DNA of 64,000 bases from Candidatus Uhrbacteria bacterium. Lineage in GTDB: Bacteria; Patescibacteriota; Patescibacteriia; UBA9934. The first letter of the stretch is position 1. Each line of letters starts with the position of its first letter. Below the pieces are notes generated by a model that was not told the DNA's origin, did not search any database, and was given only the letters and a program-made list of their open reading frames with translations. A program made the position numbers and the translations under genes. Shown here piece by piece: positions 3,600 through 61,181 of the stretch. Location: the NCBI GenBank assembly GCA_963822405.1, contig CAWGHH010000005.1, forward strand, positions 39,439-103,438. The letters run 5' to 3'.

Positions 3600-3899
3600 A
3601 TGTTAGCGTCTCATCGAGCCACATTTGAACGAGCCTGTAGAGGCAAGCGAATTATCGCCAAAGAAGGTGACGTGAGGTTCGAAGGAATCCTCCGCGACAT
3701 CAGGATATACACGGAAGAACGTATTGTGTTCGACGTCATCAGGCTGACCGAAGATCCACAGCCTAGCTACCGCAGCGGCACGATCACCGAACGCCAGTTC
3801 TGCGTCGGTCCCTACGCGTATCTCGTGAAAACAGAGCGTGGCAACATCCTCTTTCGTGGCCACAACCTTGTCGGCCTCGTCCTCGTCTCGCCAAAGTAG
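3600..3899 (+). CDS. hypothetical small protein (99 aa)
   Basis: ATG at 3600 sits 5 nt after GGAGGGAAAT. The ORF is followed by an intrinsic terminator at 3929-3958. An overlapping antisense ORF 3603..3863 is the alternative reading. Confidence 0.35.
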
Positions 3900-3928
3900 A
3901 ATCTCATGTCACCGAACACCACTTCAGA

Positions 3929-3958
3929 CGCCGTCCTGCGCACAGGGCGGTGTCTTTT
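3929..3958 (+). terminator. rho-independent terminator
   Basis: cgccgtcctg-cgca-cagggcggtg stem (two G-U pairs) followed by TCTTTT. Confidence 0.5.
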
Positions 3959-3967
3959 ATACCAAAA

Positions 3968-5272
3968 TTAACGACTCAGTTTCCGCGCAATCTCATCCAC
4001 GTTCCCCGCGCCCATAACTAGGACAACGTCACCTTCTTTAATTTCTTTTTCGAGTATTCCGCGAGCTTCATCCAAGTCTTTCGCGTAGAACATTGGTTTA
4101 GCAAAGTTCGGTTTGAGTGCATCGAGCAAGTCTCGGCTTGAAATCTTTCCCTCTTCTTCATTGCGACCTTCAACGTGATAAATTTCTGGAAGCACAACAA
4201 CATCCGCACCAGTAAAACTTTTCACGAAATCAGCGAACAACGCTTGAGTACGGGAATGCTGGTGAGGCTGAAAACACAACACTATTCGTCGACCAGGGAA
4301 GAATTCGCGCGCGGCTTCGATCGTCCCCGTCACCGCCGTTGGATGATGACCATAGTCAGAAATAATTTCCGCGCCATGATACTGGCCAACTCTTTCAAAC
4401 CGGCGCCACACGCCAGAAAATTCAGCCAATGACGCCAAAGAAACTTTGTCATTAATGGCGTACTGTCGAGCCACCGAAAGAGCCGCGAGCGCGTTCATTC
4501 TGTTAAACGCTCCAGGAACTTTAAGCTTGATCGCCTCGGCTTCAACCGAGCTAAAGCGAAGTGCTCGCTCGGAGAATATCTGCATCGAATTCTTGTCATC
4601 GGCATTCAATAGAACTGCACCAGTGGTTTTATCTACGCATTCCTGAAACGTCGCAATGATATGGTCGAGATCTCGGTAAACATCCAAATGATCTTCCTCG
4701 ATATTCGTAATCACGGTTGTCTCCGGCCAGAGCTGCACCATTTTTTGCTTGTACTCATCGCCTTCAATGATCAAAATGTCGCTCGCACCAACACGCAAAT
4801 TGCCAAGCTCCCAACCAGGAACAAGCGTGCCAACGAATACGGTCGGATCCAATCCGGCATCTTCGAAAATCTTTCCAGTCATGGCCGTAGTCGTCGATTT
4901 TCCGTTCGTGCCCGTCACACAAATAGTTCGATATTCTTTCGAGAGCTCCCCAAGAAAATCAAAATGCCCAAGCTGAGGAATCCCCAGCTCGGTTGCTCGC
5001 GCACGTTCTGGATCCTCGACGGGTACCGCCTCAGAATATACAATCAGATCAATATCACTCGAAATCTTCTCGGGATTCGATCCGATCCACACCTCCACCG
5101 AATGTACGGGCTTGGCGCCGCCAAGCCCCTTCACCGAATCTACAATCATCGATGCCTTCGCATCCGATCCACTCACCTCTTTTCCCTTCACAACCAAAAA
5201 CTTGGCAATGGCACTAATGCCAATACCGCCAACGCCGATACAATGAACTCGCTTGTATTTATCGAGGAACAT
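3968..5272 (-). CDS. murC: UDP-N-acetylmuramate--L-alanine ligase MurC
   Basis: N-terminal HCIGVGGIGISAIAKFLVVKGKEVSGSD and P-loop ICVTGTNGKSTTTAM; 434 aa. Confidence 0.9.
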   Translation of the reverse strand: MFLDKYKRVHCIGVGGIGISAIAKFLVVKGKEVSGSDAKASMIVDSVKGLGGAKPVHSVEVWIGSNPEKISSDIDLIVYSEAVPVEDPERARATELGIPQLGHFDFLGELSKEYRTICVTGTNGKSTTTAMTGKIFEDAGLDPTVFVGTLVPGWELGNLRVGASDILIIEGDEYKQKMVQLWPETTVITNIEEDHLDVYRDLDHIIATFQECVDKTTGAVLLNADDKNSMQIFSERALRFSSVEAEAIKLKVPGAFNRMNALAALSVARQYAINDKVSLASLAEFSGVWRRFERVGQYHGAEIISDYGHHPTAVTGTIEAAREFFPGRRIVLCFQPHQHSRTQALFADFVKSFTGADVVVLPEIYHVEGRNEEEGKISSRDLLDALKPNFAKPMFYAKDLDEARGILEKEIKEGDVVLVMGAGNVDEIARKLSR

Positions 5273-5303
5273 AATTTACCCGTCCTCCTTGCCCTCCCCC
5301 CGA

Positions 5304-5326
5304 CCCCCTCCACTGCGTGGAGGGGG
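5304..5326. repeat. 23-bp GC-rich palindrome (ccccctccac-tgc-gtggaggggg), left inverted repeat flanking the DUF559 gene
   Basis: 10-bp perfect stem with a 3-nt loop. Its exact reverse complement occurs at 5738-5760. Confidence 0.8.
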
Positions 5327-5333
5327 AGGAGTG

Positions 5334-5708
5334 CTAAGAGACAATTCTTTCGCGAATAATTAAAATGATTGATTCCAAAACTCTATCCGGATTATCACAA
5401 AACTCATTATTGGAAAACCGTAGTACCACAACACCGGCCTCTACTAAATATAAGTCCCGCTCTTTGTCATAATCTTTTGCCTCCGCATTATCATGCACCG
5501 CACCGTCTAGCTCAACCGCAATCTTTCCCTCGTGCGTATAGAAATCAACAATGTATGGACCAATTCCTACTTGTCGACGAAACTTTACACCGCCACATCT
5601 TCGTTGCCGCAATCGATCCCACAACAATTCTTCAGCCGGTGTCTGGTGAACTCGAAGCTCTCGACGCCTCTCCTTACTCCAAGATGGATTAACCAGCTGC
5701 TGCTCCAT
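5334..5708 (-). CDS. DUF559 / very-short-patch-repair-like endonuclease-domain protein
   Basis: LLWDRLRQRRCGGVKFRRQVGIGPYIVDFYTHEGKIAVELDGAVHDNAEAKDYDKERDLYLVEAGVVVLRFSNNEF is typical of DUF559 (Vsr/restriction-endonuclease-like fold). The listed ORF start at 5798 reads through the hairpin (PPPLPPPLRGGGG); start is more likely the internal Met at 5708. Confidence 0.7.
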   Translation of the reverse strand: MEQQLVNPSWSKERRRELRVHQTPAEELLWDRLRQRRCGGVKFRRQVGIGPYIVDFYTHEGKIAVELDGAVHDNAEAKDYDKERDLYLVEAGVVVLRFSNNEFCDNPDRVLESIILIIRERIVS

Positions 5709-5737
5709 AACATTTTCAAGCTCAGGGTTTCGAACTC

Positions 5738-6222: not shown

Positions 6223-6825
6223 TCAAACTCGAGTGATCGTGATCGGTTGCTCGGGGAGAGCCGCGGAGAAGCGCTCGGTGAGCGTTCCCATCGGCGGAAG
6301 CCCCACGGACGCGCGCAACACGTCTGAGACATCACGCATCCACTCGTGGATGGTCGCCTTCTGATCTTCATGCCGACACGAAGCCGACATCTGGATGTGC
6401 AGGGTACGACCGCTCTTGGTTTCGGACTCGATCGACACGGCGACGAACAGCCAGCTTCCCTTGAGGTAGGTCCCGAGCTTGAGCACCGGCGGAACATCGC
6501 GTGCGATCACGCGAATGCCCTCGACGTACCGTTCGTAGCCACGAAAGCGATTGTCGAGTCGAAGCTCGGCCGCGTAGACCTGCGGGTTCTCGTCCACGAC
6601 CTCGAGCAAGGCGTCGTGACCGGACGAGAACTTGATCTCGCTCTGGTCAAACTGACGAAGCAGGAGATCCGAAGAACGGAAACGCTTGCCACGCTCACGC
6701 CATTCATCGAGAGCCTTCTTGTCCGGATTCTCGAGTTTCGCGCGCTCATCAAGGGCGTCTTGAAGGTTACCTTCCGAGTCCCTGACGTGCCCCGGATTGA
6801 TCTGATAACGAACACTGACTTTCAT
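6223..6825 (-). CDS. hypothetical protein (200 aa) in GC-rich island 1
   Basis: Local GC is about 60% against about 50% in flanking DNA. Shadow ORFs appear in several frames. RBS GGAAGGAGAAGACC precedes the ATG at 6825. Own promoter upstream. Confidence 0.55.
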   Translation of the reverse strand: MKVSVRYQINPGHVRDSEGNLQDALDERAKLENPDKKALDEWRERGKRFRSSDLLLRQFDQSEIKFSSGHDALLEVVDENPQVYAAELRLDNRFRGYERYVEGIRVIARDVPPVLKLGTYLKGSWLFVAVSIESETKSGRTLHIQMSASCRHEDQKATIHEWMRDVSDVLRASVGLPPMGTLTERFSAALPEQPITITRV

Positions 6826-8033: not shown

Positions 8034-8313
8034 CATGCCTCGCAGGCCTCAGTTCTATCAGTACGGTGACGTCATCCGGCTCATTAATGTCGTCAGCCCG
8101 CGTGTTGAAGAACTCTTGAGCGCGGATGAGCTCGACGAGTTTAACCTTCGGAAGGAAAGGCTCGGCAGGCAGATCGCCGAAGATGAGAACGTGCCGTTCC
8201 GCGCAGATCTTCCTAGCGTTGCGAACCTCACCGTTCTTTCGCCACAAGCCCGACGGATCGCCCGCTGGATCAAGCGTTGGCTCATCAAAAATGACATCCC
8301 GCTCACGGCGTAA
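8034..8313 (+). CDS. hypothetical protein (92 aa), GC-rich island
   Basis: ATG at 8034 follows aGGGAGtacac. The 5' part of the listed ORF (7867..) overlaps murB antisense. GC-rich (about 58%). Confidence 0.45.
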
Positions 8314-8502
8314 ACCATCAGAGCCTCATGACCCGCCACGTTCACCGCCCACCACCCTGAGGATAGAATGATCGAATCCCTGTTTCTTGCCGCTATCCGA
8401 AATCTCCGCGACTGAATCAAAGACTTCCGAGAGTCCGATATCCGCGGCTCAGAAGAGGCCGCAAAAAAGGCTGAAAAAGGTCTGAAGGATCTCGGCATCA
8501 AC

Positions 8503-8700
8503 GTGACACCGCACAAGATCTCCTTCGACCGGGATCCAGTGATTCCCGACTCCGAGTTTGTCGATTCCGGCTTCGTCCGCGGATTCGAACGGGTCCGTGA
8601 CCAGTTCTTGAAAACGTACGAACCCGTACTCAGAAAGCGCAACCGCAAGCCCGGTCGGTTGACCGCCGGGAACATAGACGCACGACACAGCGAAGCGTAA
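8503..8700 (+). CDS. hypothetical small protein (65 aa, GTG start)
   Basis: Open frame with GTG start, followed by the terminator at 8726-8757; weak support. Confidence 0.25.
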   Translation: MTPHKISFDRDPVIPDSEFVDSGFVRGFERVRDQFLKTYEPVLRKRNRKPGRLTAGNIDARHSEA

Positions 8701-8725
8701 CGGAAACCGTCCGTCGCCTCCTCTA

Positions 8726-8757
8726 ACCCCCGCGGAAACGTGGGGGTTTTCATTTAG
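8726..8757 (+). terminator. rho-independent terminator
   Basis: cccccgcg-gaaa-cgtggggg followed by TTTTCATTT. Confidence 0.55.
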
Positions 8758-8848: not shown

Positions 8849-9211
8849 GTGGCACAACGCATTACCCGACAAAATTTCCTGGCAATGATCCTCAAGACCT
8901 GGAATGAGGCACTTGCTCTAAGTGATCAGAAAGCACTGGACAAGCTGAAGATCGGCATCAAGCGGTGCCATGTCCTCATCAAGGTCGATAACGATGGCCA
9001 CGCAATCATGGTGCCCGCCAAGACGATCACCACCGCGATCGGTAAAGGCAAGAAACGCCGACTGATCATTCGTCCTGAGCTGATCAAAGTCATGCATGGC
9101 TTCGTCGCCAACTACGAGACGATGCGCGACAAGATCCTGGCCGAACGCCTCGCAACGGCCGCCCCCACCGCTCAGCCCGAGTCCCAGCTGAACGAAGGCG
9201 TGACCGCCTAG
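8849..9211 (+). CDS. hypothetical protein (120 aa), GC-rich island
   Basis: GTG start preceded by aaaGTGAGG. No recognisable domain. Confidence 0.4.
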   Translation: MAQRITRQNFLAMILKTWNEALALSDQKALDKLKIGIKRCHVLIKVDNDGHAIMVPAKTITTAIGKGKKRRLIIRPELIKVMHGFVANYETMRDKILAERLATAAPTAQPESQLNEGVTA

Positions 9212-33584: not shown

Positions 33585-35378
33585 TCATTGGCCAATCGCA
33601 CGTTCAATCTCCTCATCAATCTCTTTGAGCCTGGTTGCTTTAGCCGGTGCGTAGTCAGTCGGGTTCTCGAAAAAATATGCAAGAATCTCGCTGCGTTCTT
33701 TTTCTAGGCCAGCGAGTTTTTGTTTTTGCTTATCCTGACGTTTGCGTTCTTCTTTCTGCAACGCATTCACCGCAACACGATCAGCCTTGCTCCGGGTGGT
33801 GACTTCCCCCTCTTTCCAAGAGGGGGCTACGGGGGAGTCGGTGGTCAGGGTGGTCGCCTCCGCCAGGTCGTCGACATACTCCTCATACGTCCCAATGTAG
33901 TGGCGAAGTGTCCCTCCCCGAATTTCATAAATCTGGTCCGCAAGCGCGTTCACGAACGTGCGGGCATGTGACACAAAAATAACCGTCCCGCCGTATTCTT
34001 TGAGCGCGAGGGCGAGAGCTTCGGCGGTCTCAACATCGAGGTGGTTCGTAGGCTCGTCGAGAATGAGTACGTTATGTTCGCGCAAAAGAATCCCCGCTAG
34101 ACATAGTCGCGCCCGCTCTCCCCCAGACAAAACGCTACAAGTTTTCTCAAGGTCGTCATTGCGGAACAAAAAGTTCCCCGCCATCATTAAAATTCTCTCG
34201 CCCGAACTCATCACCGGTGCCATTTTCGTCAGGTACGCGAGGAGTGTCTCTTGAGGAATTAACGACGCATCCGTCTTCTGATCGTAGTAACCAATATCTG
34301 CTTTGTGCCACCATTTATACGATCCAGCTAGTGGTTCAAGCTTTCCGGCGAGCGTTTTCAAGAGCGTCGACTTTCCTTTTCCGTTCTCCCCCGCAATCAC
34401 AATCTTTTCGCCCCGCTTGAGTTCGAAGGTAATGTCACTCGCGATTACTTTCTCACCGTAACCAATTGTCATTTTCTCAGCTCGAACAGCAGTTCCCGGC
34501 ACAAAGTGCGGAGTGGGAATGACAATTTTTGAAGTCGAAAGTGCCCCATGAACGGCTGCAATTTGATGCCTGAGTTTCGCAATGTGTTTGATCTTACTTT
34601 GCGCGCGTGACGCCTGGCTCGCCTTATAACGAAACCGGTCGACGAAGTCTTGGTGATGGGCAATCTCGCGCTTAAGTCGCTTATTCGTTCGCAACTGAAA
34701 TTCTTTCTGCTCTTCCTTCCACGCAAAATATTCTTCGACGGCTCCAGGATAAGTCGTCAACTCAGCCCGCTCGATTTCAAAAGTGTCTGTGCAAGTATTC
34801 TGCAAAAACTCTCGATCATGCGCGGTCACAATAAAACTCCCCTCGTACTCGGCCAAGAATCTTTCGAGGAGCAACAACGTCGAAAGGTCGAGATAGTTCA
34901 CCGGTTCGTCGAGCAACAACAAGTTCGGCTCGGCGAGCAACATCGCGACGATCTTCACGCGCATCTGATAACCTCCCGATAATTCCGCCGGTGATTTCCC
35001 TAGTTCGTCGAGCCCTAAGCCAAACTTCGCAGCCAGCTTTCGAGTCTCCCACTGAGGCCGCCCGCTCTTCTGTTCGAGATACTCTTCCGTCGACACATCC
35101 GCCGGCAACACTTCATGCTGGTGAACGATCCCGATTCTCGTCCACGGCAAAATCACAACCTCGCCCTTATCCGATTCTTCTTTTCCTATCAGGATATTCA
35201 GTAGCGTGGACTTCCCCGCTCCGTTTCTCCCGATAAGTGCAATCTTCTGCCCCTCAGACACCACAAAAGACAGATCGTCGAGCACAACCTGCTTGCCGTA
35301 TGTCTTGTGTAAACTTTTAACTTCTAGGAGAGGGCGGATCATGGACGAAAGCCTATCAGACATTCTCATCAAGCTCAA
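33585..35378 (-). CDS. ABC-F family ATPase (tandem ABC domains, no TMD; EttA/Uup-like translation factor)
   Basis: Two Walker A sites (GRNGAGKSTLLN; GENGKGKSTLLK), two LSGG signature motifs, an inter-domain linker, and a C-terminal charged coiled-coil tail. Start ambiguous (35342-35378). Confidence 0.8.
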   Translation of the reverse strand: MSLMRMSDRLSSMIRPLLEVKSLHKTYGKQVVLDDLSFVVSEGQKIALIGRNGAGKSTLLNILIGKEESDKGEVVILPWTRIGIVHQHEVLPADVSTEEYLEQKSGRPQWETRKLAAKFGLGLDELGKSPAELSGGYQMRVKIVAMLLAEPNLLLLDEPVNYLDLSTLLLLERFLAEYEGSFIVTAHDREFLQNTCTDTFEIERAELTTYPGAVEEYFAWKEEQKEFQLRTNKRLKREIAHHQDFVDRFRYKASQASRAQSKIKHIAKLRHQIAAVHGALSTSKIVIPTPHFVPGTAVRAEKMTIGYGEKVIASDITFELKRGEKIVIAGENGKGKSTLLKTLAGKLEPLAGSYKWWHKADIGYYDQKTDASLIPQETLLAYLTKMAPVMSSGERILMMAGNFLFRNDDLEKTCSVLSGGERARLCLAGILLREHNVLILDEPTNHLDVETAEALALALKEYGGTVIFVSHARTFVNALADQIYEIRGGTLRHYIGTYEEYVDDLAEATTLTTDSPVAPSWKEGEVTTRSKADRVAVNALQKEERKRQDKQKQKLAGLEKERSEILAYFFENPTDYAPAKATRLKEIDEEIERAIGQ

Positions 35379-35523
35379 TCAAAATAGCCCGCAGGTCACC
35401 TCGGATTTCTTTTCCCTGAGCAATTTCATCCTCTGATAACAGAACATCTGCTAATATTTTTTCATCCATAATTACTATATATCTAGTTCACCAACTCAAA
35501 TGATACCCCGCCAAATACCATAA

Positions 35524-36456
35524 TCAAATTTTCGGATTTCGAAAGCAAAAGTTCTTTAATGTTAGCGACAGCTCATACGCATCGGCATGGCTACACAATC
35601 CCAGATACGACGACTCGCTTCGTTCGCTAACACGAGCGAGAGCTCGCTTTGCGGTTTCAGACCTCAAAATAGTCGCATGTGGCAAAAGGACATACCCAAG
35701 AAAATCTATTCCCTGTTTCCAAGTTCTGACACTAACTTTATTGGGATGTAGTTCAAGTTTCAACGTCTCGGCCAAGAAATACTCTAGTTTCATGGCGAGC
35801 TTCCACGCCTCTTCTCTCGATTCTGTCACAATCACAAAGTCATCACAATACCGGACATAATAATGAATCCCAAGCCGTTGCTTCACATACCAATCGAGCT
35901 CGTGCAAGTACACATTTGCAAAAAGTTGACTGGTCAAATTACCGAGAGGTATACCAACTCCAGAATACGACGAAAATGTACGAACAATGTGCTCAACTAA
36001 TAGCGTTATTTGATCACCACCAATTTTATCGCGCAACAGCCGAAGCAGAATTTCATGATTTATGGTCGCGAAAAACTTTCTCACATCACATTTCAAAACA
36101 TAAACAGTCTTCGTGTTATTCGAGCTAGCTGACCTAAGGAAGTCACGAAATCTCGCAACTCCAGCGTGCGTCCCTTTATCTATTCGGCAAGAATAACTAT
36201 CATAAATAAATCGCTTCTCAAAAAGTGGTTCGATGATATTCACGAGCGCCTGATGAACAACTCGGTCGCGAACTTGCGCCTTATGAATTGTCCGCTGCTT
36301 TGGATCATAAATGGTAAACTGTTCATACGGTCCGTGTCGATATGTTCCTGCGTGTAAATCATGTTGAAGTTCAGAAATATTTTGCTTGAGATTCTTTGTG
36401 AAAACTGTTACGTCTTCTTTTGATGTTTTTCCACGTTTAAACAGTTCCCACGCCAT
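35524..36456 (-). CDS. diversity-generating retroelement (DGR) reverse transcriptase
   Basis: 310 aa. GTYRHGPYEQFTIYDPKQRTIHKAQVRDRVVHQAL (RT motifs 1/2), KCDVRKFFATINH (motif A), GIPLGNLTSQLFANVYL (SQ-containing motif 4 diagnostic of DGR RTs), and YVRYCDDFVIV (YxDD). Confidence 0.85.
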   Translation of the reverse strand: MAWELFKRGKTSKEDVTVFTKNLKQNISELQHDLHAGTYRHGPYEQFTIYDPKQRTIHKAQVRDRVVHQALVNIIEPLFEKRFIYDSYSCRIDKGTHAGVARFRDFLRSASSNNTKTVYVLKCDVRKFFATINHEILLRLLRDKIGGDQITLLVEHIVRTFSSYSGVGIPLGNLTSQLFANVYLHELDWYVKQRLGIHYYVRYCDDFVIVTESREEAWKLAMKLEYFLAETLKLELHPNKVSVRTWKQGIDFLGYVLLPHATILRSETAKRALARVSERSESSYLGLCSHADAYELSLTLKNFCFRNPKI

Positions 36457-36560
36457 TATTAAATTATTTGTCTGCCAAATATGCCAGAAGAGACTTTTAA
36501 AGCCCCCCCCACGCCGTCACCCCTAATCACCCGATCAGGAAATTTAAACCCGAGCTCAAG

Positions 36561-36986
36561 TTGTTCCATAATGGTTCGGGAGATATTCCGTTAGTGCATC
36601 TTCTCTATCAGGCATACGCCGACTGGCACGAACTACTGTTACGATTTCCAAAATCCCAAAGATATTCACTTGGCGAAAAATCTCAAACAACTCTGCTTGC
36701 AACACTACAAGATATTCTTTCGGCCGCAGCAACCTCAAACCTTGAAATAAAGTGCTCTAAACTTCTTGAGGCGAGTGGCGAACTAGACACCCTCAAACTT
36801 CTTGCTCAACTGACAAAAAAATGTAAGTGTATTTCGAACATCCAATACCAGCAATTTGATTCAAAACTTCACTCTGCCGGCAAAATGTTAGGAGCCTGGA
36901 TTAAATCAGTGGAAAGCAAAAAAGCGCAGAACGCTCTTTTGCCTCATGAGGAGTCCCTGAGAACGGGGAACGACGTGTTGTCGTAG
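36561..36986 (+). CDS. Avd-like accessory variability determinant (four-helix-bundle family)
   Basis: FPKSQRYSLGEKSQTTLLATLQDILSA, LEASGELDTLKLLAQLTKKCKCIS and C-terminal MLGAWIKSV align with Avd/TIGR02436 four-helix-bundle proteins (FPKEE.YGLTSQ.RRAA.SI; GSASELETQL; LGSWI). Opposite strand to the RT. Its 3' end overlaps the TR. Start codon uncertain (TTG 36561 or GTG 36594). Confidence 0.6.
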   Translation: MFHNGSGDIPLVHLLYQAYADWHELLLRFPKSQRYSLGEKSQTTLLATLQDILSAAATSNLEIKCSKLLEASGELDTLKLLAQLTKKCKCISNIQYQQFDSKLHSAGKMLGAWIKSVESKKAQNALLPHEESLRTGNDVLS

Positions 36987-37069
36987 GAGTTAGCGACGTG
37001 GTTACCGTTCAAGTTCGCGTCCTGACCATTGCGGTTGACGTTCGGCGAGTAAGCCCACAGGTCATAGCC
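36954..37069 (-). repeat. DGR template repeat (TR)
   Basis: 116 nt homologous to 37349-37464. All 14 mismatches place T on the + strand (A on the minus/sense strand) in this copy. Sense-frame translation is Asn(AAC)-rich: SPNVNRNGQDANLNGNHVANSYDNTSFPVLR. Confidence 0.85.
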
Positions 37070-37332
37070 AAACACCGTCCTTTACATCTCTCCCTTCAAG
37101 GACACCGGAAGCAGGCGCACCCACTTCCTGAATTTTATGCGGAACCTACGCGAATGCTGGTTCCTAGAAGAGATGCGGAGTACTCATAAGTCCCGCCGCA
37201 CGCTTCTGAAATCCGTAGATTCCAAAACTCTGGCGGTGATTGGGACAATGAAAGTATACCAAAATCAAAATGGCACCCGGACTTCTCTGAACCACGAGGT
37301 CCAGAAAATCCGAGTGCCGAGTTTCCAAGTGC

Positions 37333-38148
37333 CTAGCTCTGCACGTACTCCCTGAGAACGGGGAACGACGCGTCGTCGTAGGAGTAAGCGACGTGGTCAC
37401 CGAACAAGACCGCGCCCTGACCATCGCGGCTGACGAGCGGCGAGTAAGCCCACAGGCCATAGCCAGACACGTTGAGCAGGATTGCGGCGGCGATGGCGTA
37501 CGGCGTCTTCACACCGTCCATCTGCTTGACCCATTCGGGGGACTGACAGGCGGCGTAGAGGACTGCGAACCCGGCAAGCTTCCCGGCCTGGGTCTTCTGC
37601 ACTTCGCCCAGGATCACGCCCTTTGGGTTGAAGTTGGCGTGAAGATCAAGCACCTCCACCTTAATACTGTTCGGGACGAATGACTCCTCTTCGAGCATCT
37701 TCACGCGGTTCTCGTCCACGCCGTTGGCGTAAGCGGCCGCCCACTCCTGGTAGGTGCCCACGAACGTATCCTTGATACGCTCGCGCACGAACTTGAGAGT
37801 GGCCGGGACGTCCTCCTTGAACACGGAGATGACGATCTCGAGCCCCTCATTCTTCGGGCTCTCCTTCTCGTAGCCGGCAATGAGCCCGCTCTTGTGAGCC
37901 AAGGCCACCGCGACGTCCACTTCTTCCGGGTTCACACCCGGGTAGGACTTGGCAATGGCGATCTTGTCCGCGAGCGTGTTGTACTTTCCGTGAATGAGAC
38001 GGAAGACCGGCTCGGACGCCAGGTTCTTCACCCAGCGCTCCATGAGTACGTCGTTCGTCAGGAGCTCGATGACCATCTTCAGCGTCCCGCCAAAGCGGAA
38101 GAAACGACGGAAGAACTCGCCAGCCTGCTCAAGATGCACATTTGCCAT
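37333..38148 (-). CDS. DGR target (variable) protein, 271 aa, VR at the C-terminus
   Basis: ORF ends ...GYGLWAYSPLVSRDGQGAVLFGDHVAYSYDDASFPVLREYVQS. The last ~40 codons are the VR. GC is about 60%. RBS GGAGAttacgaaaATG. Own consensus promoter. Confidence 0.75.
   Translation of the reverse strand: MANVHLEQAGEFFRRFFRFGGTLKMVIELLTNDVLMERWVKNLASEPVFRLIHGKYNTLADKIAIAKSYPGVNPEEVDVAVALAHKSGLIAGYEKESPKNEGLEIVISVFKEDVPATLKFVRERIKDTFVGTYQEWAAAYANGVDENRVKMLEEESFVPNSIKVEVLDLHANFNPKGVILGEVQKTQAGKLAGFAVLYAACQSPEWVKQMDGVKTPYAIAAAILLNVSGYGLWAYSPLVSRDGQGAVLFGDHVAYSYDDASFPVLREYVQS
37349..37464 (-). repeat. DGR variable repeat (VR)
   Basis: Differs from TR only at TR adenine positions (14 of 14). The 22-nt identical GC-rich 3' end (cgtcgttccccgttctcaggga in sense) is consistent with an IMH element. 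Confidence 0.85.
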
Positions 38149-38238
38149 TTTCGTAATCTCCGGCCACCTCTGACTTGCCTACAGGAACACGAATTGTGCC
38201 CCATAAACCAGCCTATTCTAATTGAGAGTGACCATGCC

Positions 38239-38294
38239 ATAATAGCAAAAAAATGGCGTTTTGTCAAGCCATTTTCTGCTTATATTGGCCTAGA
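38239..38294 (-). promoter_or_regulatory. conserved promoter block, copy 2 (TTGACA-17-TATTAT) driving the DGR target gene
   Basis: Minus sense reads gcagaaaatggcTTGACAaaacgccatttttttgcTATTATggcatgg. Near-identical to 24273-24328. Confidence 0.65.
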
Positions 38295-38837
38295 TTAGCC
38301 CATTTCTTCCCTAATTTCACCTTCTAACTGTTCAACGTCAATCATGTTCATCATTTTCTTCAGCTCCGGGTCGTTCTTCGGGCCAACTTTCAGCTCTTTG
38401 CGAATGTCATTCAGCATCTCGAGCATCTTGGTAATTTCGCGCTCGGCTTGGACGTTTACTTGAAAGTCGATCTCTTCACGTAACTCGGCCACTCTTGCGG
38501 CACGGTTCTCGCTCATGAGCACGATGATAGATAAGAAAATTGCTTCAAGCGACACGAATGTTGTCAGCAAGAAAAACGGAAACGGGTCAATCACTTTAAC
38601 TCCCGGAAAAATACCGGAATTAAGAAATATCCAAATCGCAAAAACTGACATATTCCCAACCAAAAATGTCATCGTACCAAAACCACTCGTTAATAAATCA
38701 GCCGTACGCTGACTAAAAGATCTCTGACGGTTCATCTTGGACGCAAAAATTGCCATCGTTCTATTTGTAGTGGCTTGCCTGAATGCTGGTTTCTTTTTGG
38801 TCGAACCTCTCCTCTTGGTCGCCATAATCTCCTCCAT
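38295..38837 (-). CDS. DUF1003 family membrane protein
   Basis: LLTSGFGTMTFLVGNMSVFAIWIFLN...DPFPFFLLTTFVSLEAIFLSIIVLMSENR, two TM helices and a C-terminal coiled coil. Confidence 0.6.
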   Translation of the reverse strand: MEEIMATKRRGSTKKKPAFRQATTNRTMAIFASKMNRQRSFSQRTADLLTSGFGTMTFLVGNMSVFAIWIFLNSGIFPGVKVIDPFPFFLLTTFVSLEAIFLSIIVLMSENRAARVAELREEIDFQVNVQAEREITKMLEMLNDIRKELKVGPKNDPELKKMMNMIDVEQLEGEIREEMG

Positions 38838-38846
38838 AATACCACG

Positions 38847-40742
38847 CTACTTTTTCATGGACGACAGGAATTCGACAGTTCGGTTTCTTTCTTGAAGTAG
38901 TTTTCTGGCTTCGACGGAAAAAACAGCAACCATCTTACGCCAAAATGGCCGGCAGATTTCTGGCAAACGTTCACAGGCTTCGCCAGCAGACTCGACATGA
39001 AGAAAAACATCAGCACAAACCCGTTCAACACTTTCTGACCAATAAATTCGTTCGAGCTCCTGACTATACGCGCTCAACCAATCAAACCGAGCGACATCAA
39101 ATCCCTTATTTCGCAATCTCTCGAGCACGTCTACGTTCACGTGCGTCAGCTGACCACGGCGCAAATCACTCTGCCAACCTCTCGCGTCTTCAAGTAAACG
39201 CTTCGCTAAAATATAGTGCCTTAAGAATTCCTCGAAGGCTTTTATCTCTCCCCCGTCAGACGCAAATCCAAGTTTCAAAAATACTGCCCTCGCGGCCAAC
39301 ACCATACCCCAAGAACGATCAACTAGCTTTTCATCTCGGCCAAACTTCGGCAAAATATTTGGAAACACAAACCCGCGTTCACTTTTCTTTAGTCGACATT
39401 CAGACACTTCCCACGCATTCGCACTGTCGACTCTATCCATTGCATCCGCCAGTACTTCCGGCTCGACGAGCTTTGAAAATAGTTGGGTCAACTCTCGCAG
39501 AGCCACGTTTGCCACCGGCAAGTCCCGCGGATCAAGCTCGCCGTCAATGACGTTGTCGTAAATAGTGTACGCAATCCAACCAAGCGTGTGCGCCAAACAA
39601 GCGTCAACAAAAAAGTCTTCGGGAATTTCATGCGCCCGTTCAAGCGACGAAGCAATAAAATACGGAAACAAAGTTTTTTCACCGCGAACATCCGTTCTCA
39701 GCAGTTCTTCAATGTTGTAATGCGCACTCGCCGCCAACACCGGATCCAATCTCGCAAACCTTTCTTCGGCCGCATCTCGAAGAGTCGCCTGCAGCGATAA
39801 CACCTGTTCCTCCGGCTTGATCTTCTCGCGTCTGCCAATCTCCGCCTCGACTCTCGTCAACGCCCCAAGCACCATGGCCATCGTCACTACCTGCGCGCTC
39901 GCAGTCGACACCTGACCACCACGCGCCATATCAAGACAAACTGGATACGCTTGAAATGCTCGGCCGTCCTCAACCATTAATTTAAGCTCGTCGCGCCCGC
40001 TAACCAACAACTCCACATCAGCCCCTAGCCGAACCAACGCATTTAATAGTCGAGCGTAATCAAACGGATCCGTCGCACCCCGAAACCTCGCTACTACCTC
40101 GGCCAACAGCTCGTCATGCCAAGCTGGAATATTTGCATATGACAAAGCCGACAAAAATGCGGTTCGATTTGGATAAAATGGTGACTGTTCACGCTTGGCT
40201 AACAACACGCTTTTCAAGTACTCGGCTAGCTTTGGAAGCGCAATATCTTGATCCGTCAAAAATGCATAAATATGCGCGTTCACCGTAGGATCAACATTTC
40301 GCCACGCCTGCGCCCGACTTTGATTCGTTAGCCAAGTTCCATACGGACCACCAGGCTCCGCCTCCATGGTCATGAGCAACTTCACATACTGGGCAAGTTT
40401 AACGCCCGTCAAAAAATCCGAATCGTGCATCCACAAAGCGTGCATCGCAATACTCGTCGTATCAAGGTCATCAGGGTACGGCGCCTCAACTGCACCCGAC
40501 GACGCGCGCAACCAATAATTCCAAGTGCCCTCCGCACTCATCTCTCCAAGTAGTCGATGTGCCAGTCGCGCAGTCACCTCCTCAACTCCCGGCACGCCCG
40601 TTAACGCCCGCAGCGCCATGGCAACAAAAAACGAGCTCTGACGCTCGCAACTCTTCTCCCCCGTTCTATCCAACGAAACACAAACCGCAAACGCCCCATC
40701 GGACGGTACTGCGTTAACCAGTGCACTGCGGAGTCTATCCAT
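38847..40742 (-). CDS. large hypothetical protein (631 aa)
   Basis: Long ORF with conserved-looking Trp/Asp-rich segments (GTWNYWLRASS, DDLDTTSIAMHALW, YTIYDNVIDGELD). No confident family assignment. Confidence 0.5.
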   Translation of the reverse strand: MDRLRSALVNAVPSDGAFAVCVSLDRTGEKSCERQSSFFVAMALRALTGVPGVEEVTARLAHRLLGEMSAEGTWNYWLRASSGAVEAPYPDDLDTTSIAMHALWMHDSDFLTGVKLAQYVKLLMTMEAEPGGPYGTWLTNQSRAQAWRNVDPTVNAHIYAFLTDQDIALPKLAEYLKSVLLAKREQSPFYPNRTAFLSALSYANIPAWHDELLAEVVARFRGATDPFDYARLLNALVRLGADVELLVSGRDELKLMVEDGRAFQAYPVCLDMARGGQVSTASAQVVTMAMVLGALTRVEAEIGRREKIKPEEQVLSLQATLRDAAEERFARLDPVLAASAHYNIEELLRTDVRGEKTLFPYFIASSLERAHEIPEDFFVDACLAHTLGWIAYTIYDNVIDGELDPRDLPVANVALRELTQLFSKLVEPEVLADAMDRVDSANAWEVSECRLKKSERGFVFPNILPKFGRDEKLVDRSWGMVLAARAVFLKLGFASDGGEIKAFEEFLRHYILAKRLLEDARGWQSDLRRGQLTHVNVDVLERLRNKGFDVARFDWLSAYSQELERIYWSESVERVCADVFLHVESAGEACERLPEICRPFWRKMVAVFSVEARKLLQERNRTVEFLSSMKK

Positions 40743-57890: not shown

Positions 57891-60800
57891 ATGCATCAAG
57901 CATCAACATTTCGCCTTGCTCGAACGCGTTCAATCATAAGCGCGGTCATCGTTCTTTTCGCTATAACTTCTTCAGTTTTTCTAACCAAAACTTCCCCAGC
58001 GCTGGCCGCGGCAGGAGATGGAGCATCAAGTGGCATCACCCTACAAGACACTAATGCCAACGGAAAACTTGACCAAATCATTTTCAACGTAGCCAATCCA
58101 AACGGTGAAACATGGAGACTCCAAGGAGCAATGCCTTACGGCCTAGTTGTCACCCAAGGTGGAGCAGATATCACCATCACTGGTGTTACTCTTACCACAG
58201 CCGCTACAGCTCCCTCGGTTGGTGTTCAAGTCAGTCTAAGTGAAGGTGATGCTGACCTTTTAGTGAATACAGACAGCGTTGTTGGCAATGCTATGGAACT
58301 AAGCTACGCCCAAGTAACCTGGGCTACCTGTGACGTAGGTGCAACACCAAGCATTTGTGACGCCATAGACGAAGAATTAAATGCTATTGCAACTGGAGAT
58401 GGCGCCGGTGCAGTTAATACTGAAATCGATGGCGCTAAACCAGTCCTAATCAGTATGAACATGGGCGTTGTTTCAAATATAAATGTACTACGTTTTATCT
58501 ATTCAGAATCGATGACCGTTACGGATGGCGCTTCCACAACTACAAAAGGAGATATTACAGCGGCAGGTGTAGTAGCCGGGTTTGGCACCTTCGTTACTGC
58601 CGGTACCCCGGGCAATGTGACTGTGCCGACAATAAAAAATACTATCAGTGGAAGCGGCTCTACTCAATTGACAGTCAGCTTAGCCGCTCAAAATGGCGGC
58701 TTCATGTATTCAACCTCAACAACCGAACCAAGCGGTGTTTTCACGCCGGTTGATAGCGCCCAAGTTACAGACTCCGCCCTCACCCCACTTCATGTAAACG
58801 TAGCGGGAACACCAACAGTATCAGGTGGTGGCACCTGGGATCTTACAAGACCAACGATCACCTCCGTCACCCTTGGCGATGTTGCCACAACACCCAACGG
58901 AAAAGTTGATCAAGCTACTCTAGTATTTAACTCCAACATGCGAGATTCAAGCCTTACCAGTGCTGATGCTGCATTAGGCGGAGGTGCCGGTACCTTCGAC
59001 ACTCTCAGCGCAAATGATGCGACCACAGTCTTTAACATCACGGCCGATACGCTCGCAACAAACACGTCAGCCACAGCAGCTCAGTTCACCTACAGTGCAG
59101 CCACCACTCCAATTACTGACCTTGCCGGAAACCTACTCGTCACAGCTGACGACCTAACCATTGCCGCGGGTGATATCGTAGAAACAGATGGCGCAGCCCC
59201 AGTGCTAACAGCCGTAGACGTAAACATAGTCGACGGCGCAGATACTATCGAACTTCATTACTCTGAACCAATTCAAGTTTCTAACGGTGGAGCATTCAGC
59301 ACCGTCTCTGTTGTGAGCAGTGCCACTCTCGGAGCAATGACTACCGCAAAAACCCTCGAAAACATTGCTACTTTCAATGGTGCAAGTGACATGACAGCCA
59401 GTATCGCCACTGGCAACAGCCTGCTCGTTACAAATACCTCGTCTACCGGACTCCTACAAATAGAGATGAACCAGGCAGGAACAGGAGCCTACTTTAGCGC
59501 CGGCACAACAGCTCCAACCACGGATACCTATACTCCGCTTTCTGACGTAACTAGAATCAAAGATTTAGTAGGAATCGCTGTCAACGCCTCAGCTTCACCT
59601 GTTGTTGCTACCGTTGCCTCAGCCTGGGATATAACCAAGCCAACCATCTCTTCTGTCACCATTTCCGACGCCGATGCTGATGGTCGGATTGATACCGCTA
59701 CTGTAGTTTTCAACAAAGCCATGAATGATTCACGGTTTACCAACAGCAATGGATCATTAGGCGCCGGAGCCGGAACCTTCTCAACGGGCGTTACCCCAAA
59801 TGACGCAACAACGATTTTTACCCTCACCTCTGACACGCTCGCTGTCAATACCTCGGCCACAGCCGCCCAATTTGGCTACTCAGCCGTCACCACAAAACTA
59901 GCCGACCTACTAGGAAACCTGGTGAATACCGCCGTTGATGGAGCCGTTGCAGACGCTGACATAGTAGAAACAGACGGTGCATCACCAGTAGTCGTCTCTG
60001 TCTCCCCGGCAAACGGAACTACCGGTGTCATCAGAACATCACAGTCGCTCGTTATCACTTTCTCAGAAGCCATGAATACAACGTTTGCAGAAGCCACCCA
60101 ATTCACCATTACCCCTGACCCAACCGGCTCACAAACCGCGGTCTGGTCAGTCGGCAACACCATCGCCACCATTGCCCTACCAACACTTACCGCTAGCCAG
60201 CTCTACGCCGTAACCACAGCACAGGCCACTATCAATGCAGCGTCTGGCTCACCTACTGTGCTGGTAACAACAGGTCCGTCCACCGGCGACTGGTCATTCA
60301 CTGCGGCTGGTACTGGCTCCAGTAGCAGTAGCGGGTCGTCCAGCCTCTCACACTCTGTCATGGTCAATTCGCCAAACGGTGGTCAGACTTACCATGCCGG
60401 TGAATTGAATTCCATCACTTGGTCGAGCTCAAACGTTAGCAGTGTTAATTTGTCCTACGCTACCTCAAACACAGGAACCTACACATCTATCGCTACTGGT
60501 CTAGCTAGCAGCGGTTCATATAACTGGACAGTGCCGAACGTTTCTAGCACAGATGTGTACATCAAGGTCGAAGGCTACGATCTAAATACCCTTCTAGCTA
60601 CTGACGTATCAGACTCAGCTCTCACTATCATTGGTACAGTTGTAGTTCCTGCCCCAACAGCCCCACAGAATCAACCAAGCACTGGCACTGGAGTTTCACC
60701 TTTCACTGGTCTTCCGGAAGTCATCAACGTAGTTACCGCTGGCGATGTTCTCCGTGGTGAGCACTACTCTACCGTGTATTACATTGACTCAAGCATGAAG

Positions 60801-61181
60801 CGCCGACCGTTCCAGGACACACAAACTTACTACACGCACTACAGTTCCTTCAGCAACGTCCGCACAGTAACTGACGCCACGCTCAGCACGCTCACTATGG
60901 GCAAGCCAATGTTGCCAAAGGCTGGAGTAATACTGGTCAAAATCGTTTCCGATCCACGTGTTTATGCCCTCCAGACAAGCTATGACGGCTTGCATGAAAC
61001 CTTGCTCCGTTGGATCCCAAGCGAGACAGTCGCTCAGACTCTCTACGGTGCATCATGGGCTGACTACGTGATTGACATCCCTTCCACGCTCTACACTCAC
61101 TTCGGTGCCGGTTCAGACATGACTAGCTCTGACACAGTTGACCGCGGTGGTATGCAAACCCGCGCTCATGTGAATCGATAG
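57891..61181 (+). CDS. large secreted repeat-rich surface protein (1096 aa, Thr/Ala/Ser/Gly-rich, tandem ~130-aa repeats, conserved C-terminal domain)
   Basis: Signal peptide. Internal repeats TPNGKVDQATLVFNSNMRDS...IVETDGAAPV versus DADGRIDTATVVFNKAMNDS...IVETDGASPV. C-terminal domain shared with the pseudogene at 45343-46325. Confidence 0.7.
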   Translation: MHQASTFRLARTRSIISAVIVLFAITSSVFLTKTSPALAAAGDGASSGITLQDTNANGKLDQIIFNVANPNGETWRLQGAMPYGLVVTQGGADITITGVTLTTAATAPSVGVQVSLSEGDADLLVNTDSVVGNAMELSYAQVTWATCDVGATPSICDAIDEELNAIATGDGAGAVNTEIDGAKPVLISMNMGVVSNINVLRFIYSESMTVTDGASTTTKGDITAAGVVAGFGTFVTAGTPGNVTVPTIKNTISGSGSTQLTVSLAAQNGGFMYSTSTTEPSGVFTPVDSAQVTDSALTPLHVNVAGTPTVSGGGTWDLTRPTITSVTLGDVATTPNGKVDQATLVFNSNMRDSSLTSADAALGGGAGTFDTLSANDATTVFNITADTLATNTSATAAQFTYSAATTPITDLAGNLLVTADDLTIAAGDIVETDGAAPVLTAVDVNIVDGADTIELHYSEPIQVSNGGAFSTVSVVSSATLGAMTTAKTLENIATFNGASDMTASIATGNSLLVTNTSSTGLLQIEMNQAGTGAYFSAGTTAPTTDTYTPLSDVTRIKDLVGIAVNASASPVVATVASAWDITKPTISSVTISDADADGRIDTATVVFNKAMNDSRFTNSNGSLGAGAGTFSTGVTPNDATTIFTLTSDTLAVNTSATAAQFGYSAVTTKLADLLGNLVNTAVDGAVADADIVETDGASPVVVSVSPANGTTGVIRTSQSLVITFSEAMNTTFAEATQFTITPDPTGSQTAVWSVGNTIATIALPTLTASQLYAVTTAQATINAASGSPTVLVTTGPSTGDWSFTAAGTGSSSSSGSSSLSHSVMVNSPNGGQTYHAGELNSITWSSSNVSSVNLSYATSNTGTYTSIATGLASSGSYNWTVPNVSSTDVYIKVEGYDLNTLLATDVSDSALTIIGTVVVPAPTAPQNQPSTGTGVSPFTGLPEVINVVTAGDVLRGEHYSTVYYIDSSMKRRPFQDTQTYYTHYSSFSNVRTVTDATLSTLTMGKPMLPKAGVILVKIVSDPRVYALQTSYDGLHETLLRWIPSETVAQTLYGASWADYVIDIPSTLYTHFGAGSDMTSSDTVDRGGMQTRAHVNR

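Follow-up and report, generated by a model that had tools for sequence, protein, structure and literature searches.

An apparently intact diversity-generating retroelement with an uncharacterised, GC3-rich target family in a Candidatus Uhrbacteria chromosome

Does a 64,000-nucleotide stretch of contig CAWGHH010000005.1 from a Candidatus Uhrbacteria bacterium (hereafter the window) carry a genuine diversity-generating retroelement (DGR), and if so, is it one that could still rewrite its target gene? The region in question contains three open reading frames (ORFs; 310 aa on the minus strand, 141 aa on the plus strand and 271 aa on the minus strand) together with one direct repeat pair, and a first-pass annotation had read it as a complete DGR with a reverse transcriptase (RT), an Avd protein, a template repeat (TR) and a C-terminal variable repeat (VR) bearing the signature of adenine mutagenesis. 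Our tests of the repeats, the RT, the Avd protein and the architecture upheld that reading. We put a probability of about 0.9 on the locus being a genuine DGR that is complete, apparently intact and chromosomal, with the B3 layout typical of the candidate phyla radiation (CPR) and a single adjacent target. Confidence in the DGR identity of the locus is very high, and to judge from its sequence the element is probably active today. Systems of this kind are already well known; what the locus adds is an uncharacterised family of target proteins and an excess of GC at their third codon positions (GC3). The core parts are as follows.

35524-36456, minus strand: DGR reverse transcriptase, 310 aa, with R55, LGNLTSQ (L171, S176, Q177) and YCDD at 203-206
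36561-36986, plus strand: accessory gene avd (141 aa), oriented against RT, TR and target
36954-37075, minus strand: template repeat, with 27 A, none of them at codon position 3; seven AAC codons and one AAT codon
37349-37470, minus strand: variable repeat, codons 227-267 of the 271-codon target
37349-37370, minus strand: 3' end of the VR, resembling an initiation of mutagenic homing (IMH) site; 22 GC-rich nt, CGTCGTTCCCCGTTCTCAGGGA, identical to TR 36954-36975, with divergence thereafter
37333-38148, minus strand: target (variable protein) gene, 271 aa, with an N-terminal helical or alpha-beta part and a predicted C-terminal C-type-lectin-like domain

The history of adenine-specific mutagenesis is written in the repeat pair, which a repeat search delimited as a direct repeat of 122 nt at an offset of 395 and with 88% identity. 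It had been described as 116 nt long; the pair and its 14 adenine mismatches are real, but the repeat extends 6 nt further at the sense 5' end. Read in the minus-strand sense, TR and VR differ at 15 positions, 14 of which are A in the TR and have become G (8), T (5) or C (1) in the VR, all of them at codon position 1 or 2 of the target frame. Re-alignment agrees with the first-pass annotation that each of the 14 internal mismatches has A in the 36954 copy, and the sole non-adenine mismatch (T to C at 37071/37466) lies at the extreme sense 5' edge, outside the 116-nt range. Given 27 A in 122 nt, the binomial probability that at least 14 of 15 mismatches fall at A is 8e-9. The A-derived differences hit target codons 231, 238, 240, 242, 245, 247, 249, 251, 255, 259 and 260. 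Translated in frame, the TR reads ...SPNVNRNGQDANLNGNHVANSYDNTSFPVLR, the same Asn(AAC)-rich peptide as had been reported; substitution of its adenines can reach about 2e15 protein variants and no stop codon. The identity of 22 nt at the sense 3' end likewise proved exact, and by analogy with the Bordetella model (PMC5758913) this end would take the part of the IMH.

The second line of evidence is the RT itself. Both motifs on which it had first been recognised are present, GIPLGNLTSQLFANVYL at residues 168-184 and YVRYCDDFVIV at 200-210, and the protein, which matches Pfam RVT_1, carries at the level of sequence the [I/L/V]GxxxSQ and YxDD motifs of a DGR RT. Its best sequence match in the PDB is the 328-residue RT of entries 8ub7-8ube (E 7.7e-46, 160 bits), whose length, taken with the residue numbering used in bioRxiv 10.1101/2023.10.23.563531, identifies it as the Bordetella phage enzyme bRT; the best group II intron RT in the same search reached 81 bits. 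Of three bRT residues described as contacting the incoming nucleotide (bioRxiv 10.1101/2023.10.23.563531), R74 and Q187 are kept as R55 and Q177, and I181 is substituted by L171. Among the NCBIfam models the best was that for group II intron RT/maturase, at 157 bits against a cut-off of 300; the retron St85 model gave 47 bits against 235, the models of the anti-phage RTs Drt2, Drt3a, Drt4, Drt5, AbiA and retron-TIR all stayed far under their cut-offs, and no DGR RT model was among the matches. The protein thus lies under the thresholds of these retron and defence-associated RT models as well as that of the group II introns. Rfam found two tRNAs and nothing else in the window, hence neither a group II intron nor a retron RNA. 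The nearest phage relatives, at 35-40% identity, include Vibrio phage VP585 and ANMV-1, which we take to be DGR-bearing viruses, and Bordetella phages were matched too.

The ORF between RT and TR had been called Avd-like, and that assignment is supported by Pfam bAvd (51.5 bits, cut-off 40); the gene lies on the plus strand, however, and its final 33 nt overlap the TR. Homologues of avd occupy the same inverted position in four related loci (L001, L005, L009 and L015, described below). The profile match ends near residue 117, and the remaining tail of about 24 codons crosses a stem-loop into the TR; L001 does not conserve this tail, and the overlap therefore looks incidental. It nevertheless makes the avd mRNA and the TR RNA complementary over the stretch 36914-36986.

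Taken along the minus strand, the locus runs from a promoter through the target gene with its VR, a hairpin, a 257-nt spacer, the TR, a stem-loop and the inverted avd gene to the RT. A core of TR, reverse-strand avd and RT, written TR-(avd)-RT, is what Wu et al. (2018; NAR 46:11, PMC5758913) named 'Architecture B3', a layout reported in 90% of the DGRs of the CPR. In the CPR B3 elements TR, inverted avd and RT are ordered and oriented as in the window, and there too a single target with a C-terminal VR, and without a recognisable motif, adjoins the core upstream. The resemblance to the DGR of Bordetella phage BPP-1, ordered mtd-avd-TR-brt, extends to a homologous RT (the 160-bit match above) with the equivalents of R74 and Q187 and the SQ motif, an Avd protein, adenine-specific differences between TR and VR, a TR rich in AAC codons, an IMH-like end of high GC content and two structured elements, one a hairpin following the VR and the other a stem-loop immediately past the TR. 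Unlike in BPP-1, avd is inverted and placed between TR and RT, which makes the RNA that follows the TR antisense to avd; the element resides in a chromosome and not in a phage; and the target is unrelated in sequence to Mtd, with no phage homologue found. Chromosomal genes in the window encode SecA, DnaB, a ClpB-like ATPase, a Mur ligase, MurB and HtrA, an ABC-F protein gene adjoins the RT, and within the window neither a second VR nor a paralogue of the target was found.

Around these genes lie a promoter and three structured elements.

38239-38267, minus strand: sigma-70-like promoter of the target, TTGACA-17-TATTAT with TG before the -10, 11/12 consensus
37272-37318, minus strand: GC-rich hairpin, 21-bp stem with a TCGT loop, 15 nt past the target stop, followed by ATTTTGATTTTGG, a T-rich run
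37107-37128, minus strand: stem-loop upstream of the TR, with the conserved loop GGRTGCGYCTG and preceded by the conserved CGCATAAAAT (37132-37141)
36914-36944, minus strand: stem-loop after the TR, 14-bp stem starting 10 nt past the TR, antisense to the 3' end of avd

The promoter is the best-scoring site in 35300-38400 and, together with a GGAG 9 nt upstream of the target ATG, bears out the consensus promoter and ribosome-binding site noted at first; on this sequence it would serve the target gene. A long GC-rich hairpin after the VR and target stop is common to all five cassettes, that is, the window and the four loci named above, and a comparable one occurs in all related loci; it is a candidate target-recognition hairpin or cruciform, a terminator, or both. 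The contig of L002 (Logan ERR12037365) breaks 31 nt past the target stop, inside this 21-bp hairpin at about window position 37302, for which a palindrome effect on the assembly graph is a more likely cause than VR heterogeneity.

The stem-loop after the TR recurs in 5/5 cassettes, about 8-12 nt after the TR and with a stem of 11-15 bp that is kept while its sequence varies. Handa et al. report that 207/278 Avd-containing DGRs, CPR included, have a putative Avd-binding stem-loop immediately past the TR (bioRxiv 10.1101/2023.10.23.563531), and by analogy the element at 36914-36944 is a candidate for the Avd-binding part of the DGR RNA. In the stem upstream of the TR, pairs are preserved through two-sided changes across the cassettes, a conservation that, with only five sequences compared, is suggestive.

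How such a set of parts would work we infer by analogy with the Bordetella phage system, from the transcription units through priming to homing. Transcription of the minus strand would yield an RNA that spans the TR together with its conserved flanks, which a complex of RT and Avd would bind, the stem-loop 10 nt past the TR being the likely contact for Avd. Synthesis of cDNA by this complex would be faithful except opposite the 27 template adenines. The cDNA would then take the place of the VR, with the 22-nt IMH-like identity and the hairpin after the target gene as guides, and the outcome would be the recoding of at least 11 codons, whose residues share one face of a beta-hairpin and the loop after it, within a C-type-lectin-like C-terminal domain.

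What kind of protein is being diversified? The first-pass annotation could liken the target to no recognised DGR target, and this holds: Pfam, NCBIfam and the PDB gave no sequence match for the target or its family (the Pfam scan covering 63 members and 10 remote ones), a PDB sequence profile search returned noise only, and none of the three resources linked the target in sequence to the C-type-lectin, FGE-sulfatase or Mtd-type families. Variable proteins of C-type-lectin fold (Mtd, TvpA 2y3c) and the FGE/SUMF family are nonetheless counted among the closest known systems. Inspection by eye showed no signal peptide or transmembrane segment. An AlphaFold2 model built on a 63-sequence alignment reached a predicted local distance difference test score (pLDDT) of 96.5 and a predicted template modelling score (pTM) of 0.91. 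From residue 161 onwards the modelled elements are a strand, two helices, short strands, a hairpin (235-252) and a strand (264-266), an order that fits the C-type-lectin fold as we take its topology to be. Because of this order we treat the C-terminal scaffold as a very divergent C-type-lectin-like domain, and its membership of that class is tentative: the fold prediction that had been called for thus gave a topology that fits, but Foldseek found no significant match to the model in the PDB or BFVD. The N-terminal part has no structural match. The A-derived changes are alternate residues of both hairpin strands and residues of the following loop, a pattern to be expected if they form one exposed face, presumably a ligand-binding surface.

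Relatives of the target were few in a word-indexed search of 5.8 billion proteins (three only), while a profile search of 1.84 billion representatives gave 177 at E <= 0.001, of which 39 at E <= 1e-30, mostly of 220-290 aa. The set of loci was assembled from genome and metagenome contig scans (20 loci) and from a look-up of encoding contigs (L001). Relatives of the cassette occur in Candidatus Uhrbacteria, Minisyncoccota and Patescibacteria metagenome-assembled genomes, and in some such genomes labelled as uncultured Gammaproteobacteria. L001, L005, L009 and L015 hold the same cassette as the window in the same order and orientations, with mismatches at TR adenines in 14/16, 14/14, 17/19 and 11/12 cases, respectively, and the Asn codons of the five TRs stand at homologous positions of the scaffold. 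No flanking genes were common to any two of the loci, the window included, so that the cassette and the target family sit in a differing context in each genome.

A comparison between two of these loci points to turnover of the VR. The L005 and L013 genes are 88% identical and the 300 nt downstream of them 93-98% identical, and of the 25 sites at which their VRs differ, 20 correspond to adenines of the L005 TR. The pattern speaks for mutagenic homing within the family, and does not bear directly on the locus in the window. Five further homologues stand alone.

L003, 2680-3510: target homologue without a nearby DGR
L006, 5761-6747: target homologue without a nearby DGR
L007, 5929-6756: target homologue without a nearby DGR
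L008, 5869-6693: target homologue without a nearby DGR
L016, 1797-2630: target homologue without a nearby DGR

Within 4-6 kb of these genes no TR, Avd or RT was found. All five retain the IMH-like sequence (CCCGTCCTCCGGGAGTAC...) and the downstream hairpin, and their VR regions vary at the usual variable positions. Because the IMH-like sequence and hairpin are kept with no TR, Avd or RT nearby, we suggest that a DGR elsewhere in the genome probably acts on them as remote targets. In L008 the listed gene is preceded by a tandem paralogue (4914-5711), a very divergent one that matches the family profile at E 5e-9.

Could the element nevertheless be dead? Under this alternative the DGR was once active, homing has since ceased, the parts merely look intact and the VR preserves past mutagenesis in frozen form. 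Several results lean that way or otherwise weigh against an intact and active element. The only other assembly of the locus, L002, encodes an identical target protein, and a search of JGI metagenomes with the VR, carrying N at each TR-adenine position, gave no match. The RT ORF is short at its N-terminus, by about 19 residues relative to bRT in the alignment and by about 50 relative to the L001 ORF. The promoter scan found no promoter-like site for the TR RNA, and a long-range duplex between the RNA upstream and downstream of the TR (an analogue of the cPRT-stop, sought with RNAduplex) was indistinguishable from shuffles. The IMH and its TR counterpart IMH* are identical across the 22 nt that they share, so that discrimination between donor and recipient must depend on sequence beyond them. 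Finally, the avd product passes the Pfam model, but on NCBIfam DivGenRetAVD it scores 59.9 bits, under the equivalog cut-off of 80. Set against the idea of a dead element, no ORF is interrupted, the RT retains its catalytic YCDD and the residues for nucleotide selectivity, the TR still has seven AAC codons and lacks A at position 3 throughout, the related cassettes share the flanking RNA elements, and VRs turn over in related loci. We consider an inactive DGR very improbable, and an element that is intact and probably active remains our reading of the locus. A plain segmental duplication of the 3' end of a gene beside an unrelated RT (group II intron, retron or defence), followed by random divergence, would find some encouragement in the best NCBIfam model being group II intron RT/maturase and in the sequence upstream of the TR, where tblastn with the target protein picks up a decayed copy of its gene (WIN 3875-4048), but it is effectively refuted by a group II score of half the cut-off with retron and Drt models far under theirs, by the Rfam result, by the adenine-specific mismatches at codon positions 1 and 2 (P about 8e-9), which recur in four independent loci, and by an RT of 310 aa, which leaves scant space for the maturase and endonuclease domains that group II intron proteins carry.

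The target gene is also set apart by its base composition. It had been described as markedly more GC-rich than the RT gene; the excess is real, but it is confined to third codon positions, with a GC3 of 0.83 and an A content at those positions of 0.04 against a GC3 of 0.39-0.58 in neighbouring genes, GC at the first and second positions being ordinary. Across 57 ORFs of the window GC3 averages 0.50 (standard deviation 0.09), which makes the target the top outlier (z = 4.2). The same holds throughout the family, since GC3 exceeds that of host genes in every family locus examined (L001, L003-L019), with or without a nearby DGR. Closer members show 0.77-0.93 against 0.3-0.7 in flanking genes, and the distant members L010-L012 and L017-L019 show 0.40-0.62 against about 0.2-0.4, so that the excess spans roughly 50% protein divergence and unrelated chromosomal contexts. 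A search of a literature library found no account of it.

Two simple explanations were rejected. The tandem paralogues of L008 have a GC3 of 0.76 and 0.80 in a low-GC genome, and high expression is not the cause there because the nearby EF-Tu gene (0.31, like its neighbours) has the ordinary codon usage of the host. Recent transfer of one locus from a GC-rich donor is insufficient as the sole cause because members with no more than about 50% identity have the bias in common. The bias could have arisen through repeated horizontal spread out of GC-rich donors, through GC-biased gene conversion or through selection at silent sites. A bolder idea, which we hold to be unlikely, is that the variable-protein family is more than a passive DGR target and reflects either a nucleotide process linked to the element or a mobile 'diversification cassette'. 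Such a process could be repeated gene conversion over the whole gene, mediated by cDNA or recombination, or selection against silent A and T in a gene exposed to an adenine-mutagenic RT; the cassette could be a self-contained mobile unit circulating among Patescibacteria from a GC-rich reservoir. Three further ORFs of the window without a Pfam match (6223-6825, 8058-8753 and 8849-9211) have a raised GC3 of 0.67-0.73, and some of them may not be real genes because opposite-strand ORFs overlap them.

Two other ORFs of the window are without a Pfam match. One, of 631 aa (38847-40742, minus strand), lies two genes upstream of the target and has a faint precomputed match to AstC-like_C in the Logan record. 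The other, of 1096 aa (57891-61181, plus strand), is unusual in its composition by codon position, with a C content of 0.38 at position 2, and may encode a low-complexity surface protein.

The locus leaves the understanding of how DGRs work unchanged, and provides a well-documented example of the CPR type in which every RNA and protein part is mapped. It also defines a small, uncharacterised family of variable proteins that comprises 177 cluster representatives, is without a Pfam match and could be modelled structurally with confidence. The silent-site GC excess that runs through this family may inform how DGR targets evolve or move between genomes, and its VR, placed on what appears to be a very divergent C-type-lectin-like domain, offers a handle on what it is that bacteria with small genomes diversify.

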